Shown: one piece after another, positions 15,425 to 25,813 of the stretch | Numbering within the stretch: the first letter of the stretch is position 1 | How the letters are laid out: each line of letters starts with the position of its first letter | Assembly: GCF_947499565.1 (NCBI RefSeq) | Contig: NZ_CANMOV010000006.1 | Origin: an uncultured Croceitalea sp. | GTDB taxonomy: Bacteria > Bacteroidota > Bacteroidia > Flavobacteriales > Flavobacteriaceae | DNA length: 64,000 nt | Direction: 5' to 3' (one strand) | Translations under genes and position numbers: made by a program | The notes under the pieces: generated by a model | Databases searched by the model: none | What the model saw: only the letters and a program-made list of their open reading frames with translations | Told to the model about the DNA's origin: nothing

Positions 15425-15825
15425 GTCACTTAGAGTGTTTTCAAACCAACGATAGTGCGAATGAAAGTGTATAGAGAAGCTGGTGTTCCAAAAAGTTCTC
15501 GATACAATTTGCTAGAAGCAAATCACTCGAACTGACATTTTATACTAAATTACAAACCAAATCTAGTGTCACTTCGAGTGGATTTTGCGACCTTTTTCAG
15601 AAGCAAAATTTGTATCGAGAAGCCAACACGTTCCAAAAGGTTCTCGATACAATTTGCTTGCAGCAAATCACTCGAACTGACATTTTATTTAAATTACAAA
15701 CAAATCCTAGCGTCACTTCGAGTGGATTTTGCAACTTTTTTCGGGAGCAAAATTTGTACAGAGAAGCCAACACGTTCCAAAAGGTTCTCGATACAATTTG
15801 CTTGCAGCAAATCACTCGAACTGAC
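15425..15825. repeat. Tandem array of three family B REP doublets (~113-bp unit, 143-144-bp period)
   Basis: Units at 15425-15536, 15568-15681 and 15712-15825, each GTCACTTCGAGTG...TATCGAGAA-spacer-TTCTCGATAC...CACTCGAACTGAC. Confidence 0.9.
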
Positions 15826-15985
15826 ATCTTCGTTTAGGATTCATATTACTGTTAAGGATTTTATAAATGCCGTAATTCACCTAAAATATCATACTTTTCA
15901 TCGATGGTGAAGGCCAGAAGTATTGCTTTCAGGGTAAGTATTAAAGAGACCGCTATTGGTCTATGTTCATTTAAATTTTAATACT

Positions 15986-16789
15986 ATGAAAGCAAAACAG
16001 ATGTTATCCATCCTTACCATACTAGCCATCTGTTTCTTTGCAAACGCTCAAGAAAAGTCGCACTGCATTTACGATGATTGTGGTTTTGAACCTGGGCAAA
16101 CCGTTTACCTTTTTGGGGACCAAGTGCAATTGCGCGAGGCACCTACTACCGAGAGCAAAGTGCTCAAAACTTTATCTATTGGCATGCCTATGAAAGTACA
16201 AGAAAAGCACAAAAATTCTTGGCGCTATAAAGGCGTGGACCATCATTTTTACAAGGTGAATTACAATGGTTTAGAAGGTTATGTCCTAGGTGGATTATTG
16301 GCCTTAGAAAAGAAGACCATTAACAATGTGGTGCATCTCTTTGGGAGGGCAAAAACAGGTAATGAAGATTACCTGCTTATTCGAACCTTAAAAGACGACG
16401 GTTCCTTTATAGAAAAGTCTACACGGTTACACAACGGGCAGTTTTATTTGACAGACATCGGCACCAAAGGTTTACCAAATATAGAAGGCGCCTTACTAGT
16501 AGATTATGTTGCCAAAGCTTTTGGCACGGAAGGAGGTGGTATTTACCTATTTCAGGAAGAAGGGGAACTGCATCAGGTAGCGCGGCTATCGCAGGTGTCC
16601 GATGCAGGAGCCTATTATCTGTGGGAAGAATTTATATTTCCTGAAGATAAAAACGGTGTAGCGGGCAGAATACGCTACAAAAAAGAAGTTGGTGAAAGTT
16701 ATAATAGCAATGCCCAATGGAAAAAGAAAAGTATAGAGACCAAAGAACTGGTCTGGGTAAATGCAAGCTTAGAGCTGGCACAGCAATAG
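15986..16789 (+). CDS. Secreted SH3b-domain protein
   Basis: Signal peptide MKAKQMLSILTILAICFFANA; SH3b-like VQLREAPTTESKVLKTL...YKVNYNGLEGYV; ATG 15986 preferred. Confidence 0.75.
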   Translation: MKAKQMLSILTILAICFFANAQEKSHCIYDDCGFEPGQTVYLFGDQVQLREAPTTESKVLKTLSIGMPMKVQEKHKNSWRYKGVDHHFYKVNYNGLEGYVLGGLLALEKKTINNVVHLFGRAKTGNEDYLLIRTLKDDGSFIEKSTRLHNGQFYLTDIGTKGLPNIEGALLVDYVAKAFGTEGGGIYLFQEEGELHQVARLSQVSDAGAYYLWEEFIFPEDKNGVAGRIRYKKEVGESYNSNAQWKKKSIETKELVWVNASLELAQQ

Positions 16790-16808
16790 TCACTATTAGA
16801 TAGTTTAT

Positions 16809-16835
16809 AACCGAGGGACACCCCTCGGTTTTTTT
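16809..16835 (+). terminator. Intrinsic terminator
   Basis: AACCGAGGG-aca-CCCTCGGTT hairpin followed by a T-run. Confidence 0.8.
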
Positions 16836-16881
16836 AGCAATTGGATATAATCTTAGTACATTAGAAGGACAAACAAACGCC

Positions 16882-17961
16882 ATGCTAGCTCCCAAAACGA
16901 AAAGATATATCCTTAAAATACTCCCTTTTGGTATCATCACCGGAGTTTTTTATTTGGTCTACGCACTAGTAGAACATGGAATTTTAGGAGATCACCCCAT
17001 ATATCCCTCCACCAAAAATCCCTATAATTTCTCCATATGGGTGCCCACAATTATATCCTTCATTATAGGACTGCTTATAGGTCTTTTTGAAGTACGGTTT
17101 TTAAGTCAAACCTTTTTAAAAAGCAGTTTTACCAAGAAAATCATTTTTAAGACACTCATTTACCTATTGGTGATTATGGTAGCAACGGTCACCATTGCTG
17201 TGGTAAATAATACTATTGAATTCGGGGTAAGTCCACTGTCTTCGCGCGTTTGGAATGGCGTCTATCGGTTTTTCTCCAACTTTGCGTTTTGGAGCATCAT
17301 CTCCTACTATACCGTAGGTCTAACTACCTGCCTTTTTTATACAGAGATTAGTGATAATGTAGGTCAGAATGTATTGCTTAATTTCTTTACGGGGAAGTAT
17401 CACCATCCGGTAGAAGAGGAACGGGTGTTTCTATTTTTAGATATGAAATCTTCTACTACCATTGCGGAGCAATTGGGGCATATCACCTATTTTAAATTGT
17501 TACGCGATTATTATTCCGATTTATCGGAAGCCATCATCACCTTTGGGGGAGAAATCTACCAATATGTAGGTGATGAAATTGTAGTCACCTGGCAGTTAAA
17601 ACCAAACCAAAAACATACGGAGAGTGTCGCTTGTTTTTTTGCTATGAAAGCTGCGCTAAATGCAAAGTCTGATAGCTATATAGCTAAGTATGGACTGGCT
17701 CCAACCTTTAAAGCGGGTATCCATTTGGGTAAGGTAACCACTGGTGAAATTGGAAAAATCAAAAAAGACATTGTCTTTACGGGCGATGTATTAAATACCA
17801 CTGCGCGCATTCAAGGGCTTTGTAATGAGTACAATGTAGCATTGCTACTCTCAAAAAAGTTAGTAGATACCTTGGATTTAAAAGCTTCTTATGAAGTTTA
17901 TGAACTTGGCGAAACTGAACTCCGTGGACGAGATGAAAAAATTACGCTGTACTCCATTTGA
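16882..17961 (+). CDS. Membrane-anchored class III nucleotidyl cyclase (paralogue of 9990..11033)
   Basis: Four TM helices; FLFLDMKSST, YQYVGDE, FKAGIHLG and GDVLNTTARIQ motifs. Confidence 0.9.
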   Translation: MLAPKTKRYILKILPFGIITGVFYLVYALVEHGILGDHPIYPSTKNPYNFSIWVPTIISFIIGLLIGLFEVRFLSQTFLKSSFTKKIIFKTLIYLLVIMVATVTIAVVNNTIEFGVSPLSSRVWNGVYRFFSNFAFWSIISYYTVGLTTCLFYTEISDNVGQNVLLNFFTGKYHHPVEEERVFLFLDMKSSTTIAEQLGHITYFKLLRDYYSDLSEAIITFGGEIYQYVGDEIVVTWQLKPNQKHTESVACFFAMKAALNAKSDSYIAKYGLAPTFKAGIHLGKVTTGEIGKIKKDIVFTGDVLNTTARIQGLCNEYNVALLLSKKLVDTLDLKASYEVYELGETELRGRDEKITLYSI

Positions 17962-18004
17962 GAACTCTTAGTTGAAATTAAACATAAACTAAATAAGACC
18001 TAAT

Positions 18005-18066
18005 GTCAGTTCGAGTGATTTGCTTAAAAAAGCTTGTCCTGAGCTCTGCCGAAGGGTATCGAGAAC
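18005..18066 (+). repeat. Family B REP carrying a nested family C element
   Basis: GTCAGTTCGAGTGATTTGC...[CTTGTCCTGAGCTCTGCCGAAGG]GTATCGAGAAC. Confidence 0.8.
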
Positions 18067-18096
18067 ATCGTTTGGAAAAGTAACCCTTGTTTGTGA

Positions 18097-18208
18097 GGGA
18101 TTTCTCAATCGTCGCCGAGCCTGTCCTTAGCAAAGTCGAAGGGCTCCTCATGTCGAAATGACTAAAAAAGAACACGATTTTCATTTCTAAGTGAATATGA
18201 GAAATCCC
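18097..18208. repeat. Orphan family A REP doublet (same unit as those flanking the GIY-YIG gene at 25.4 kb)
   Basis: Perfect 11-bp terminal inverted repeat GGGATTTCTCA...TGAGAAATCCC; the left half nearly matches 25259-25325. Confidence 0.88.
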
Positions 18209-18252
18209 ATAATAGTTTTCTTAAGTATCTTTAAACCAACAACTCCTTGTTT

Positions 18253-18687
18253 ATGAAAAAGAGCCGCAACATAGCTATAGTTTTTCTAGCCATTTCGCTA
18301 GTGCTTGGTGTGGTCTTTTTCTTGAATACTACATACCCAAAAGGGCTAAACAACTATTTTAAAGCGGAATACTACAACCAATTTGGGCCTTTGGCCATAT
18401 GTGTAGAATTGTTGGTTGCTGGCTACTACTTATTTGTAAAAAATACTAAAGCCAATTTTGCATTGGCTGTTTTTGCCTTTACCGCTCTTTTAGACCCTAT
18501 TTTTAATGTCACCGGACTTTTTAGCAGTTTGGTACCCCTTTATGCTACCATACTTTTTGTGATTTGCGCCTTGGTAGCACTCTGGCTTTCTTTTACCGAC
18601 ACTTTTGGGCTTGGTAAGATTTCTATGTGGGCTGCTTTTGGTAGTTTTTTGCTGGGTACTGCTGTAGAGTTGTTTTTTAATCTGTAG
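18253..18687 (+). CDS. Hypothetical 4-5 TM membrane protein
   Basis: Hydrophobic ORF between repeat clusters; ATG at 18253. Confidence 0.7.
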   Translation: MKKSRNIAIVFLAISLVLGVVFFLNTTYPKGLNNYFKAEYYNQFGPLAICVELLVAGYYLFVKNTKANFALAVFAFTALLDPIFNVTGLFSSLVPLYATILFVICALVALWLSFTDTFGLGKISMWAAFGSFLLGTAVELFFNL

Positions 18688-18700
18688 CAACCCTCCGCTT

Positions 18701-18890
18701 GTCAGTCCGAGTGTTTTGTTTAAAAGCTTGTCCTGAGCTCTGCCGAAGGGTATCGAGAACATCGTTAGTTCCAGTGTCTTCTTTGAAAATGCCTGTCCTG
18801 AGCTCTGCCGAAGGGTATCGAGAACCTCTTTAGTTCGCGTGTCTTCTTTAAAAACACCTGTCCTAAGCTCTACCAAAGGGCATCCAGAAC
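18701..18890 (+). repeat. Tandem array of three B+C composite repeats (63-65-bp period), progressively degenerate
   Basis: Units at 18701-18760, 18764-18825 and 18829-18890, each ending C(C/T)TGTCCTGAGCTCTGCCGAAGG-GTATCGAGAAC or a decayed version. Confidence 0.85.
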
Positions 18891-19067
18891 AACACCAATT
18901 CCTTTAATTTTCTATGGAAAATTGTGTCAAAAACCACAGTAAAACCATAAAAATTTAGGGTTTTCACCTATTGTAAAATAGAGACATTCCTTATATATTG
19001 AAAATTGATTTCACCTCCCCCAATTTAAATCAAAAAAGTATGCTTTACCTACTAATATTGGCAGCTA

Positions 19068-19104
19068 TAGTTACTAGTACGTATACACAATTGTTATGCA
19101 CAAT
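19068..19104 (+). mobile_element. Right-half attC-like site (R'-like GTTATGCAC) opening cassette 1
   Basis: ...GTATACACAATT-GTTATGCACAAT, 13 nt before the ATG; nearly complementary (8/9) to GTGTATAAC at 19873. Confidence 0.5.
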
Positions 19105-19113
19105 TAAGCGAAT

Positions 19114-19870
19114 ATGGAGAAAAAAGAGATTTGGAATTACATCCGTATTGGAACTGACTTAAGATATCTTCAAGATGTTACTACTGAGTTTCCGATAATA
19201 TTTGAAGATGGTCCTCGAGACAATTTGAGAAGGCTTTTAGAAGCTTTTGACGAACTAAGGTTTAGACGTAACGTTAAGGGCTTCATCAGGTCTTATTTCG
19301 TTCCTTAAAAAACTTGACGAAATTCAAGAAGAGCGTAAATTATCTACCGAAGAAGTTAAAGAACTTAAAGAGGAATTGAAATACTCAAGATGGACAATGT
19401 CTGCAGAATGTAGAGGTATCTTTGCCTACATCACCTCCGAAAAAAGATATGATGTCTCAAAACTATCTGATTCTATTGAACGTCTTTTTTCACCTGACAC
19501 ATACAATAACCTTCCTGATATGGCACAATACGACTTTAGTGAAGCTGGTAAATGCATCGTATTTGAACGCTCAACTGCTGCAGCTTTTCATATATTGAGA
19601 GGTACTGAAGTATTGGTAAGAATGTATTATAAGAAGTATTTACGTAAAAAACCAGATGGAAAAACTTGGGGACAACTTTTGAACGAATTAAAAAATAAAT
19701 CCTCAGGAAAAAAGCCCAATCCAATAACGGTAAACCACTTAATCAACATTAAAGACTCTTTCAGAAACCCTACTCAGCACCCAGATAAAGTGTATGATAT
19801 TCAAGAAGTTCAAGACCTTTTAAGTGTCTGTATTGACGTAGTAAATAAGATGGTTGAAGAAATAAAATAA
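19114..19870 (+). pseudogene. HEPN-motif (DUF4145-like) putative RNase split by a single frameshift near 19257
   Basis: Frame 1 reads to ...FDEL; the second frame is open from 19259 (GLDVTLRASS...) to 19870. Removing one A from CTAAGGTTTA joins them into a ~250-aa protein with EAGKC...TAAAFHILRGTE and RNPTQH (RxxxxH). Confidence 0.7.
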
Positions 19871-19872
19871 AA

Positions 19873-19938
19873 GTGTATAACAACACCTATACGCAATGCC
19901 CTTCGGGACACTGCGCATAGCCAAACCGTGTATGTAAT
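19873..19938 (+). mobile_element. Complete attC-like site between cassettes 1 and 2
   Basis: GTGTATAAC begins 2 nt after the stop; hairpin CTATACGCAATG-CCC/ttc/GGGACACTGCGCATAG with one extrahelical base and two mismatches that become G.T on the bottom strand; decayed right end GTGTATGTAAT. Confidence 0.6.
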
Positions 19939-19962
19939 ATAACTGATTAAAAAAAATAAAAA

Positions 19963-20544
19963 ATGAGTGAATGGCTACAGTACCTTATGATACCATTAAT
20001 AGTAACTATTTTAGGTGGTGTCATAATTTTGATTCTAAAAACCATGAGACTTAGAAGAGCTATGGTTTCTGGAATGGTAAATGAAATTAATGCAATTATC
20101 ACGCAAGCTAGACAAATACAAGAATATTTATCTAAAGAAAATCATGAATGGTACATGGAGGGAAAAATTCTCGACGAACCACCAATATTTACACCAGAGA
20201 AAAATTTAATTTACGAAACCTTTATCGAGTATCTTTATTTGTTGAAAAAAAATGAAATAAATAAAATCACTCTGTTTTATGGTAAAGCACTTTCTTGTAC
20301 TAATAGGGTAGTAATACTTTTTCACAGAATTCAACAACAAAGTGACTCAAAAAAAGCACTTACAAAAAAACAAATATCAATGAATAAACTTAGAGCTAAA
20401 AAAGTATATCATAGTTTGGAAGCTCTTTGCAACATCTCTAATCATAGTATTAAAAAATTATCAGACTTACCTGAAATATATAATGAAATTGATACTACTG
20501 AAATAGACAGAAAGATGAATGATGTTAAAAAAACTGCTAATTAA
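19963..20544 (+). CDS. Hypothetical protein, N-terminal TM anchor plus helical domain (cassette 2)
   Basis: Very AT-rich ORF bounded by attC-like sites; no recognisable motif. Confidence 0.7.
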   Translation: MSEWLQYLMIPLIVTILGGVIILILKTMRLRRAMVSGMVNEINAIITQARQIQEYLSKENHEWYMEGKILDEPPIFTPEKNLIYETFIEYLYLLKKNEINKITLFYGKALSCTNRVVILFHRIQQQSDSKKALTKKQISMNKLRAKKVYHSLEALCNISNHSIKKLSDLPEIYNEIDTTEIDRKMNDVKKTAN

Positions 20545-20549
20545 ATACT

Positions 20550-20593
20550 GCACACAGCATTGGCTATAAGTAATTGCTTGTTCTAGACTACTT
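20550..20593 (+). mobile_element. Left-half (truncated) attC-like site closing cassette 2
   Basis: GCACACAGC-ATTGGCTATA-AGTAATTGCTTG..., same 9+10-nt spacing to CTATA as the site at 19873; no matching right arm follows. Confidence 0.45.
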
Positions 20594-20697
20594 AAAAATT
20601 ATAATACTTTATAAACATCATTACCCAAAACCCAACCCATATTGTCCCTAATATCCCAGCTCCTATTCGTATACAAGAATATGGTGCAGGTATTTTT

Positions 20698-21483
20698 ATG
20701 GAGGTTCCAACAAAATCTGCATTCAAAAAAGCTTTAAAGAAAGGCTATCTTACTGTAAATAGTGAAGTGGCTGACACAGCAACTATGCTATCTGGCGGAG
20801 AGGAACTCGTGTTGATCATTCCAGGAAAAGCAAGTCCCAAGAAAAAACTGGTCTTTCCCCTTACTGTTTTATATGAGGATGAACACTTAGCAGTCATCCT
20901 AAAACCTGCTGGTATTTTGGTAAGTGGGAATACCTTTAAAACTATTGCCGCTGCCCTGCCCCAAAACCTAAAACCAAGTACCTTGGCAGATGCGACCATA
21001 CCACAACCTGTGCATCGCTTAGATTATGCCACCACAGGTATTTTATTGGTGGGGAAAACAAGTAGCGCCATTCGTGCACTAAACAAGTTGTTTGAGGAAA
21101 AAGTCATTACAAAAACCTATTACGCAGTTACGATTGGAGACATGCTGCCAAATGGAGAAATCATTTCAACAATAGGCGGTAAACAAGCACAATCTAGCTA
21201 TGTGGTGGAGCAAACCGAGCCTTCAGAACGCTTTGGCTGCCTTAATTTGGTAAAACTAAGCCCTAAAACCGGGAGAAGGCATCAACTACGCAAACATCTT
21301 TTAAGCATTGGCAGTCCCATTCTTGGGGATGCAACTTACAATCATGAGCATCTAATTTTAAAAGGCAAAGGTTTGTATCTACATGCCTATTCCCTAGAAT
21401 TTATACATCCATTTACCAAGGAAGCAATGCATATAACAGCCAAACTTCCAGAAAAATTTAAACGTATTTTTAGTACTTTATAA
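20698..21483 (+). CDS. RluA-family pseudouridine synthase (true start probably upstream, frame open from 20605)
   Basis: VHRLDYATTG catalytic Asp motif, KPAGILV, TGRRHQLRKHL and LHAYSLEF. Confidence 0.9.
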   Translation: MEVPTKSAFKKALKKGYLTVNSEVADTATMLSGGEELVLIIPGKASPKKKLVFPLTVLYEDEHLAVILKPAGILVSGNTFKTIAAALPQNLKPSTLADATIPQPVHRLDYATTGILLVGKTSSAIRALNKLFEEKVITKTYYAVTIGDMLPNGEIISTIGGKQAQSSYVVEQTEPSERFGCLNLVKLSPKTGRRHQLRKHLLSIGSPILGDATYNHEHLILKGKGLYLHAYSLEFIHPFTKEAMHITAKLPEKFKRIFSTL

Positions 21484-21509
21484 TCCGTTTTACATTTTGG
21501 TAGAAATTC

Positions 21510-21639
21510 GTCAATTCGAGTGATTTTTTTAAACTGCGTTCAGCAGAATTCCACCTGTCTGCCTGCAGACAGGTAGAGAATCAGAATTTTTAAAAAACCG
21601 TCAGTTCGAGTTTTTTCCTAAAGAAAAAGTATCGAGAAC
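21510..21639 (+). repeat. Two family B REPs; the first contains a nested perfect palindrome (family D)
   Basis: GTCAATTCGAGTG...[ACCTGTCTGC-ct-GCAGACAGGT 21553-21574]AGAGAA; second copy GTCAGTTCGAG...GTATCGAGAAC at 21600-21639. Confidence 0.78.
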
Positions 21640-25108: not shown

Positions 25109-25376
25109 GGATTTCTCAATCGTTGCCGAGCCTGTCCTGAGCGCAGTTGAAGGGCAACTCATGTCGAAATGACTAAAACAGAACTCACAGTCATTTCGAA
25201 CCGAATACAATGAGTGTGAGAAATCTAAAAACTTAACCTAAACACTCTTATTGGTCTTGGATTTCTCAATCGTCGCCGAGCCTGTCCTGAGCGTAGTCGA
25301 AGGGCTCCTCATGTCGAAATGACTAAAATAGAACCCAATGTCATTTCGAACCGAATGTAATGAGCGTGAGAAATCT
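25109..25376. repeat. Two family A REP doublets (118 bp each, 150-bp period) downstream of GIY-YIG-1
   Basis: 25109-25226 and 25259-25376: GGATTTCTCA...TCGAAATGAC-16 nt-GTCATTTCGA...TGAGAAATCT. Confidence 0.92.
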
Positions 25377-25674
25377 AAATGACGTCGTTATTTAAAAATT
25401 CCCACTCTGGATTAAAAGAAGAAATCAAGTTATCCTTTTTCTCTCTTCTCCATTTTTTCAATTCCTTTTCTCTAAGAATTGCTGACTCTATGGATTCAAA
25501 ACCTTCATAGTAGACAAGATGATAACAGTTGTATTTGCCGGCAAATGATTTTCTAGCATTTTGACTATCAAAATAATGTTGGGAAAGTCTTCGCTGGATA
25601 TCGTTTGTTACGCCAATATAAAGTGTGGTTTTGTTTTCATTAGTTACTATGTAGACAAAGTAGTTAGATAACAT
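25375..25674 (-). CDS. Small stand-alone GIY-YIG nuclease (GIY-YIG_unchar_3-like), copy 1
   Basis: FVY...LYIGVTND..RRL.QH, REKELKKWRREKK, FNPEW; catalytic Y/R/E/N appear intact; the TAG stop overlaps the repeat end. Confidence 0.92.
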   Translation of the reverse strand: MLSNYFVYIVTNENKTTLYIGVTNDIQRRLSQHYFDSQNARKSFAGKYNCYHLVYYEGFESIESAILREKELKKWRREKKDNLISSFNPEWEFLNNDVI

Positions 25675-25694
25675 CTTTTAAAAATAGTTTATTT

Positions 25695-25813
25695 AGATTT
25701 CTCAATCGTTGCCGAGCCTGTCCTGGGACGCAGTTGAAGAGCAACTCATGTCGAAATGACTAAAATGGAACCCGCAGTCATTTCGAACCGAATACTAGGA
25801 GCGTGAGAAATCT
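25695..25813. repeat. Family A REP doublet upstream of GIY-YIG-1
   Basis: AGATTTCTCA...TCGAAATGAC...GTCATTTCGA...TGAGAAATCT, 119 bp. Confidence 0.92.

Follow-up and report, generated by a model that had tools for sequence, protein, structure and literature searches.

A probable fossil of an integron-like gene-capture platform in a Croceitalea genome

The window analysed here by computation is a stretch of 64,000 nucleotides (nt) from a Croceitalea species whose genome, labelled G000, has a completeness of 97%; coordinates are positions in this stretch. Between 19066 and 20593 it holds two open reading frames (ORFs) on the + strand, each followed by a sequence resembling an integron attC site. 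The first of these sites is near-complete (site 1), the second, 620 nt away, is truncated (site 2), and both lie 3' of the remnant of an attI-like docking site (Table 1). The array is made up of this docking-site remnant, a dead cassette carrying a HEPN-type gene (ORF1) and an orphan cassette (ORF2) that ends in the truncated site, and its GC content is 0.28-0.35 over the cassettes (0.28-0.32 over the ORF of cassette 2) as compared with 0.38-0.41 in the flanks. We propose, at a probability of about 0.88, that the region is the fossil of an integron-like gene-capture platform of the Flavobacteriaceae, an array that has decayed and is not active. An original prediction, made from the letters of the window, had described two cassettes between attC-like sites; the attI-like site 5' of cassette 1, the pseudogene state of ORF1 and the fossil nature of the platform go beyond it.

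Table 1. Features of the array region in the window
Feature	Position	Strand	Basis
Leader 5' of the docking site	18927..19065	+	72% identity, common only to the syntenic C. rosinachiae locus (blastn)
attI-like docking-site remnant	19066..19096	+	blastn and alignment with post-recombinase regions of other genera
Start of cassette 1, GTT and private bases, GTTATGCAC	19094..19102	+	homology boundary and complementarity to the site 1 box
Cargo of cassette 1, HEPN-type gene, RNPTQH motif, +1 frameshift	19114..19870	+	translations, Pfam, homologues
attC-like site 1, short type, 57 nt	19873..19929	+	blastn copies, nhmmer E=3e-17 vs short-type profile
Start of cassette 2, after the damaged GTT, GTATGTAAT	19930..19938	+	complementarity to box 20550-20558
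Cargo of cassette 2, intact 193-aa protein, N-terminal membrane helix	19963..20544	+	translation
attC-like site 2, mid type, truncated, first ~46 nt of ~125	20548..20593	+	blastn copies, nhmmer

The first bases of cassette 1, GTTATGCAC, lie 11 nt ahead of the ATG of ORF1 and pair at 8 of 9 positions with GTGTATAAC (19873-19881), which begins 2 nt past the stop codon (19868-19870), as had been predicted. GTGTATAAC is the R'' box of site 1 and is followed by a hairpin (19887-19920, with arms 19887-19901 and 19905-19920), by CCAAACC and by a crossover box reduced to GT (19928-19929), one T short of GTT. On the top strand the hairpin contains one bulged base and two A.C mismatches that turn into G.T pairs on the bottom strand, again in agreement with the prediction, and the DNA fold energy is -9.1 kcal/mol for the top strand (z -1.8) and -11.6 kcal/mol for the bottom strand (z -2.6) relative to shuffled sequence. 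In a genome of another genus (G016) 50 nt of site 1 recur without a mismatch (100% identity), and four further genomes (G039, G035, G036 and G002) have copies at 85-94%. The identical copy (locus L021, G016:C6:495211-495260) lies among unrelated neighbouring genes; such identity of a 50-nt site across genera suggests either recent horizontal movement or very strong constraint.

ORF1 is read in two frames, 19114-19308 and a second frame up to 19870, and DNA alignment with intact homologues of 251 amino acids (aa) locates an extra base near 19250. ORF1 is a cassette gene, as originally predicted, but a dead one and not a single open frame. It belongs to a family of 593 homologues, the closest of which is 86% identical at 251 aa, and is of HEPN type with an R-x4-H motif; the Pfam HEPN match is weak. 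The intact, 86%-identical homologue is itself a cassette and is found in two contexts (L133 and L134), in one after unrelated DNA and in the other after the site of another cassette. Homology to these spans exactly GTTATGC to ATAAC, the sequences 5' of GTTATGC being unrelated, and the boxes covary, GTTATGCGT/ACGCATAAC in the homologue as against GTTATGCAC/GTGTATAAC in the window. The inner part of the homologue's site belongs to a different length class from site 1; a HEPN cassette that elsewhere carries another site type can thus be traced across genomes by its private boxes.

The start of cassette 2 is complementary to the box at 20550-20558 at 7 of 10 positions, every mismatch being a transition. 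The stop codon of ORF2 (20542-20544) is followed by GCACACAGC (20550-20558), the remnant of an R'' box in which AAC has changed to AGC (20556-20558), and then by 10 nt ending in CTATA, the same spacing as in site 1, the sequence continuing with ATTGGCTATAAGTAATTGCTTGTTCT. Site 2 keeps its 5' arm only: the central hairpins and the 3' arm with GTT, together the 3' two-thirds, are gone and similarity ends near 20593, which bears out the second, truncated site of identical spacing in the original prediction. What is left corresponds, at 85-92% identity, to the opening ~50 nt of sites that measure ~125 nt in nine genomes (G005, G006, which is Croceitalea marina, G007, G009, G010, G013, G016, G019 and G023), and in an nhmmer search it covers profile positions 2-50 only. 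The terminal site of the syntenic array in Croceitalea rosinachiae (G001, locus L037) is broken at the same point as that of the window (20580-20593), after ...CCTACT / GACTACT, and despite this common break point the preceding cassettes and the following DNA differ; it can be read either as an old shared truncation with later exchange of cassettes or as a preferred point of breakage or secondary recombination.

ORF2 is a rare orphan with just 2 homologues among 5.8 billion proteins. Neither Pfam nor PADLOC matched it, PADLOC giving no usable result for either cargo. Its 73%-identical homologue (L145, Logan contig SRR25654130_556117) has a ~70-nt direct repeat on both sides (215-290 and 1055-1125), which differs in kind from the sites of the window (...TTTTAGATTA.AAATTTTAGTGTATTTTTAA...GACTTCCCCACTT...) and may be another cassette-type boundary.

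The docking-site remnant is an imperfect 20-nt palindrome (8 of 10 pairs) followed by CACAATT and then by the GTT that opens cassette 1 (19094-19096), and its core CAATTGTT is intact. By blastn this segment matched the 50 nt directly 3' of the stop codon of the recombinase gene in 7 loci of other genera. As 19066-19096 is a slightly degraded homologue of these docking sites, the array of the window starts with an attI-like site minus the recombinase gene. The leader ahead of it occupies the slot that the 3' end of the recombinase gene holds in complete systems; it contains no such gene and could hold a promoter.

A DNA search with window sequences was run on 40 relatives, and besides the flanking genes it returned short, strong matches to both sites themselves. 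Every copy is placed between two ORFs, behind the stop codon of the first and ahead of the start of the second, and the homology ends sharply after ...CATAGCC-NNNN-CGTT. In many Flavobacteriaceae genomes, and at other places in this one, sites of both families delimit single ORFs, so that the proposal of non-canonical, integron-like cassettes in Bacteroidetes holds up. Copies resembling site 2 are numerous in at least nine genomes and often stand near contig ends, for which reason the ends of IS200/IS605-type or IS110-type insertion sequences (IS) were considered as well; this was rejected, since the copies lie between ORFs in ordered arrays with private complementary flanks.

These private flanks follow a simple rule. 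In a genome of the same genus (G005) 16 sites stand in a row on one strand at a spacing of 0.4-1.8 kb, and in 13 of the 15 cassettes the 7 variable bases behind GTT recur, as an exact reverse complement, ahead of AAC in the cassette's own site; a unit that takes circular form and is cut at G/TT leaves this signature. Among the neighbouring site pairs of other genera, counting the step from docking site to first cassette, 26 of 39 match at 6 or more of 7 positions, 18 of them perfectly, as compared with 3.5% under random pairing; most of the failing pairs span gaps over 2 kb, within which a site was probably missed. The complementarity between the start of a cassette and the box before AAC that had been noted in the window holds in these arrays too. 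Observed starts include GTTGTAC, GTTAGCA, GTTACCA and GTTATGC, and the sites fall into three length classes, ~52, 125 and 190 nt, with the same ends. The consensus RYYYAAC/GTTRRRY of integron boxes is not followed, only AAC/GTT and the purine after GTT being kept, and in the window two boxes are mutated besides (GTT minus one T, AAC to AGC), as had been remarked.

A stated structure, consisting of AAC/GTT, an internal loop that is asymmetric and an inner helix of 16 bp, was tested for covariation; the 34 mid-type sites used come from several genera and include seven of this genome. AAC and GTT are invariant in all 34; 98% of cells are paired (97.6% in the inner helix) and 12 of 19 pairs show compensatory changes. 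None of 500 shuffles attained the observed values, and sliding the partner columns cuts pairing to 28-51%. Two G-T pairs are (nearly) invariant and exist on the bottom strand only, their top-strand equivalents being A.C mismatches, and the short site 1 of the window has the first of them in the same position. Of 60 sites, 48 fold more stably as the bottom strand, as do all 8 tested sites of this genome; the spacer is asymmetric and a base is bulged, features that may serve as extrahelical determinants. When the window and eight related loci were scanned with Rfam, no family for the sites and no group II intron was returned.

Several points weigh against our reading of the region as a decayed array. 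The counts for covariation and strand bias take in related, non-independent sequences and overstate independence, the direction of the result being clear nonetheless. The complementarity of cassette 2 is weak and site 2 is a mere fragment, neither of the close ORF2 homologues (contexts L138 and L145) adjoins a recognisable intact site, the frameshift of ORF1 might be an assembly error, and excision and insertion of cassettes are deduced from comparison of sequences. Within the window, moreover, the inverted 9-mer pair is not above chance, ranking 21st of 143 inverted repeats in 3.5 kb, and becomes significant only through homology with sites in other genomes. If one adds that the hairpin stands immediately 3' of a stop codon, as a terminator would, and that the genome is rich in other small repeats, it is conceivable that there is no cassette system at all, the 9-mers being due to chance and the hairpin being a transcription terminator or a repeat of the repetitive extragenic palindromic (REP) or miniature inverted-repeat transposable element (MITE) type. 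We give this almost no credence, as the copies of the hairpin in other genera keep private flanks that are complementary across each ORF, the homology of the HEPN cassette begins and ends exactly at the boxes, the sites cluster 3' of one recombinase family and no Rfam family was matched. A terminator in particular was rejected, since the hairpin has no T-run and is conserved across genera together with the cassette logic.

The recombinase in question was found directly upstream of the sites in two relatives. It is a tyrosine recombinase of 370-375 aa with a SAM-like and a catalytic domain, in which the residues R..K..HxxR..H..Y are present, and with ~105 N-terminal residues that match no known domain. 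On the XerA-type model NF040815 the two proteins score 215 and 234 bits at a cut-off of 220, and among solved structures 4a8e and 5hxy are the nearest to them. More than 460 relatives were found in reference genomes; at E<=1e-60, 72 of the 120 Flavobacteriaceae genera sampled have a homologue, and some species have several copies per genome. Within the recombinase loci, site-like patterns are confined almost entirely to the stretch downstream of the gene; Maribacter sp. R77961, for instance, has 8 there. These were sought with a loose regular expression for the site ends, which was used only next to recombinases and dropped for genome-wide counts, as it was no rarer in a reversed genome (34 hits) than in the real one (28). 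Many contigs stop just downstream of the recombinase gene, as is expected where repeated sites break assemblies. Alignment of ~60 loci directly 3' of the stop codon of the recombinase gene gave a ~20-nt palindrome, 15-40 nt from the stop in complete systems, then CAATT-GTT or TAC-GTT and then variable bases, which in most loci match the site box of the first cassette.

Since the sites have an AAC...GTT frame, paired inner boxes, an unpaired spacer and a bottom-strand bias like classical attC sites, they might be canonical ones served by a true integron integrase (IntI), and the window might be an ordinary cluster of attC sites lacking integron-integrases (CALIN). We consider this highly improbable. 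On the integron-integrase model TIGR02249 the array recombinases reach 202 and 209 bits, below the cut-off of 265, and match in two stretches that skip profile positions ~181-240, the IntI-specific domain. In comparison with VchIntIA (2a3v), 27 residues of the recombinase span 70 of the integrase, so that ~43 are absent exactly at this domain. The cut-off of TIGR02249 was reached by no protein of this genome, of 5 relatives that bear arrays or of 121 Flavobacteriaceae genomes, the last of these sets being scanned without a positive control, and the boxes misfit the integron consensus outside AAC/GTT. The recombinase that heads complete arrays is Xer-like and not a canonical IntI. The term CALIN-like, used in the original prediction, applies to the window in a loose sense only: a CALIN has at least two attC sites in a row with no integrase nearby, and the sites of the window are not canonical attC.

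The locus of the window has lost its own enzyme. There is no tyrosine recombinase on the whole 122-kb contig, which extends the prediction that the window has no integrase, and no homologue of the array recombinase at E<=1e-60 in this genome, where the best match is 39% identical. A 290-aa Xer-like gene 5 kb from sites at C1:1429691 was considered as the cognate enzyme and rejected; it has only 39% identity and no N-terminal region and is oriented away from the sites.

The content of the locus differs among relatives. At the syntenic locus of C. rosinachiae the adenylate cyclase, the small membrane ORF and the docking site recur; the four cassettes behind them are unrelated ones that conform to the box rule, with a SnoaL-like protein and coiled-coil proteins among their cargo. 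In G010, a third species, an SH3-domain gene and a pseudouridine synthase gene lie 140 bp apart and the locus is empty, and in G007 an unrelated gene of ~1.2 kb stands between the two. ORF1 and ORF2 are therefore not stably syntenic. As to the gap between the SH3-domain and pseudouridine synthase genes itself (16789-20628 in the window, as against L038 in G010 and L039 in G007), it is a variable spot, which holds the cyclase, the small ORF and the array here and still more genes in C. rosinachiae.

A BLAST search of the window sites against their own genome returned no full second copy of either, which first suggested that they were unique; profile searches later found about a dozen further sites in ~8 places, each behind a single ORF, and neighbouring relic sites obey the box rule. 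The original prediction had called for a search of the genome for further copies, and had named as evidence to the contrary a lack of similar sites around single ORFs elsewhere together with stable synteny of the two ORFs in relatives; neither was found.

Other repeats were recorded in this genome. A module of ~380-400 nt that has no ORF occurs only within its clusters of cassette sites (G000:C1:1430713-1431110, C1:1432508-1432875, C2:72308-72684, C2:74896-75222, C3:1652-1979 and C3:3398-3725), a related piece being present in the C. rosinachiae array. It begins right at the crossover, GTT|CGAGTCAATTCACC, finishes with ...GTTTAGCGCTGTAGTT and variable bases and has no Rfam match; it resembles a cassette that has no ORF and whose site is very long. 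A REP-like repeat of ~65 nt with the core GTCCTGAGCTCTGCCGAAGGG and no relation to the cassette sites is present both as single copies and as triplets in tandem (18005-18072, 18118-18143, 18699-18896, about 15425-15830 and 25109-25794) and also near the same genes in C. rosinachiae. Directly 3' of the pseudouridine synthase gene lies a short repeat (21481-21550), with copies of 78-89% identity on C5, C3 and C1 of this genome and in several Croceitalea genomes.

From these comparisons the build of an intact system can be read, and we infer how it would work. It begins with the gene of a Xer-like tyrosine recombinase of 375 aa, with the docking site (a palindrome of ~20 nt, then CAATT or TAC, then GTT) within 15-40 nt of its stop codon, followed by a co-directional row of mostly single-gene cassettes. 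Each cassette opens with GTT and about 6-7 private bases and closes with a foldable site of ~52, 125 or 190 nt, in which the reverse complement of the private bases and AAC come first and ...CATAGCC-NNNN-CGTT comes last. The recombinase probably acts on the folded bottom strand of the sites, at the AAC/GTT box, as in integrons, and cassettes would leave as circles and enter at the docking site. Homology, the boundaries of the cassettes, complementarity, covariation, the strand bias, the link with the recombinase and the turnover of the locus are results of the computation; the recombination chemistry, the single-stranded substrate and the order of losses are our interpretation of the analysis. 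As the recombinase is gone from locus and genome, the palindrome is degraded, the T of GTT is lost, AAC has become AGC, site 2 is cut and ORF1 is frameshifted, the array is frozen; ORF2 may still be expressed.

It could be argued that the array is not dead, its cassettes being mobilisable in trans by an incoming related recombinase and the dispersed relics forming a shared gene pool. Site 1 is nearly intact, a genome of another genus having a copy with 50 identical nt, the core CAATTGTT of the docking site is preserved, the recombinase family is present in congeners, and ~8 further site clusters are kept in this genome. With the crossover box of site 1 minus one T, the entire 3' half of site 2 missing, ORF1 frameshifted and no recombinase in a genome of this completeness, we regard mobilisation in trans as unlikely and favour the fossil. 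As such, the window is a natural end state, the appearance of a platform after loss of its recombinase, and the interest lies mainly in the system and less in this relic itself.

Among systems described so far, integrons and the rAID-1 arrays known from gut Bacteroidales come closest. As in integrons, the arrays are co-oriented and consist mostly of single-gene cassettes, each closed by an imperfectly palindromic site framed by ...AAC and GTT..., and the private bases at the cassette start are complementary to the cassette's own site, the signature of a circular intermediate cut at G/TT; in the window this boundary is seen with 8/9 (cassette 1) and 7/10 (cassette 2) pairs. The sites have the paired outer R''/R' and inner L''/L' boxes and the AAC/GTT of attC, a layout that site 1 shows, with a bottom-strand folding bias, and the docking site adjoins the recombinase gene. 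The site classes of 52-190 nt recall the span from the 59-base element to the Vibrio cholerae repeats, and relic clusters without integrase exist in both. Unlike integrons, the flavobacterial recombinase is Xer-like, has no IntI-specific additional domain around patch III and carries an extra N-terminal region of ~105 aa; its gene is co-directional with the cassettes, and the docking site, a near-perfect palindrome, follows its stop codon instead of lying between divergent genes. The boxes deviate from RYYYAAC/GTTRRRY beyond AAC/GTT, and the spacer of the sites is asymmetric, its two arms measuring 3-5 nt and 6-7 nt.

That the cassette logic is complete here, with a Xer-like enzyme, and present in most of the genera sampled from a major family of marine bacteria is of note: the prevailing view is that Bacteroidetes have almost no integrons and that integrons require the special domain of IntI. 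In the IntegronFinder 2.0 survey the Bacteroidetes had integrase-only elements (In0) and one complete integron, in Salinibacter ruber (PMC9024848), and the passage of PMC9668308 that cites Messier & Roy 2001 holds the IntI-specific domain to be necessary for integron recombination. Our full-text search of the literature returned no description of such arrays in Flavobacteriaceae. In sequence the flavobacterial recombinase is closest to XerA/XerC-like enzymes, and unlike XerC/D and archaeal XerA it is linked to cassette arrays and not to a single dif site, and has the N-terminal extension. The arrays bear on the evolution of integron integrases from Xer recombinases, as well as on the exchange of accessory and defence genes among marine flavobacteria.

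Nearest among the described systems is rAID-1 (recombinase-associated acquired interbacterial defence), in which a 5' XerD-like recombinase is followed by co-directional short genes with intergenic repeats 'reminiscent of integrons' (bioRxiv 10.1101/471110, Ross et al. 2019). Its recombinase is defined as more than 44% identical to BF9343_RS08045 (Ross et al. 2019), and its cargo consists of orphan immunity genes against interbacterial toxins of type VI secretion (T6SS; bioRxiv 10.1101/471110). Common to both are the phylum, conserved intergenic motifs and a GC content below that of the host genome, the recombinases having been compared by description only; the window has at least two co-directional low-GC genes with conserved intergenic motifs, and a 5' Xer-like recombinase is carried by its relatives and not by the window itself. 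In contrast to rAID-1, which is defined in Bacteroidales, the present system has its hosts among marine Flavobacteriaceae, and in place of immunity genes the window carries a HEPN-type pseudogene and the gene of an orphan membrane protein with no recognisable domain. The two rAID-1 papers (10.1101/471110, PMC12247911) describe no folded sites, private complementary boxes, crossover point or mechanism, and the biogenesis of rAID-1 was called an open question in 2025 (PMC12247911). We tentatively suggest, at somewhat less than even odds, that marine Flavobacteriaceae run full integron-type capture, in which sites fold as single strands and cassettes pass through a circle before they enter a docking site, by means of a plain Xer-like recombinase without the domain regarded as indispensable for integron recombination. 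If so, the integron-type mechanism predates IntI or arose twice, relics such as that of the window are stranded parts of a cassette pool that spans genera, and the same mechanism would supply what is missing for the assembly of the medically studied rAID-1 immunity arrays in gut Bacteroides.

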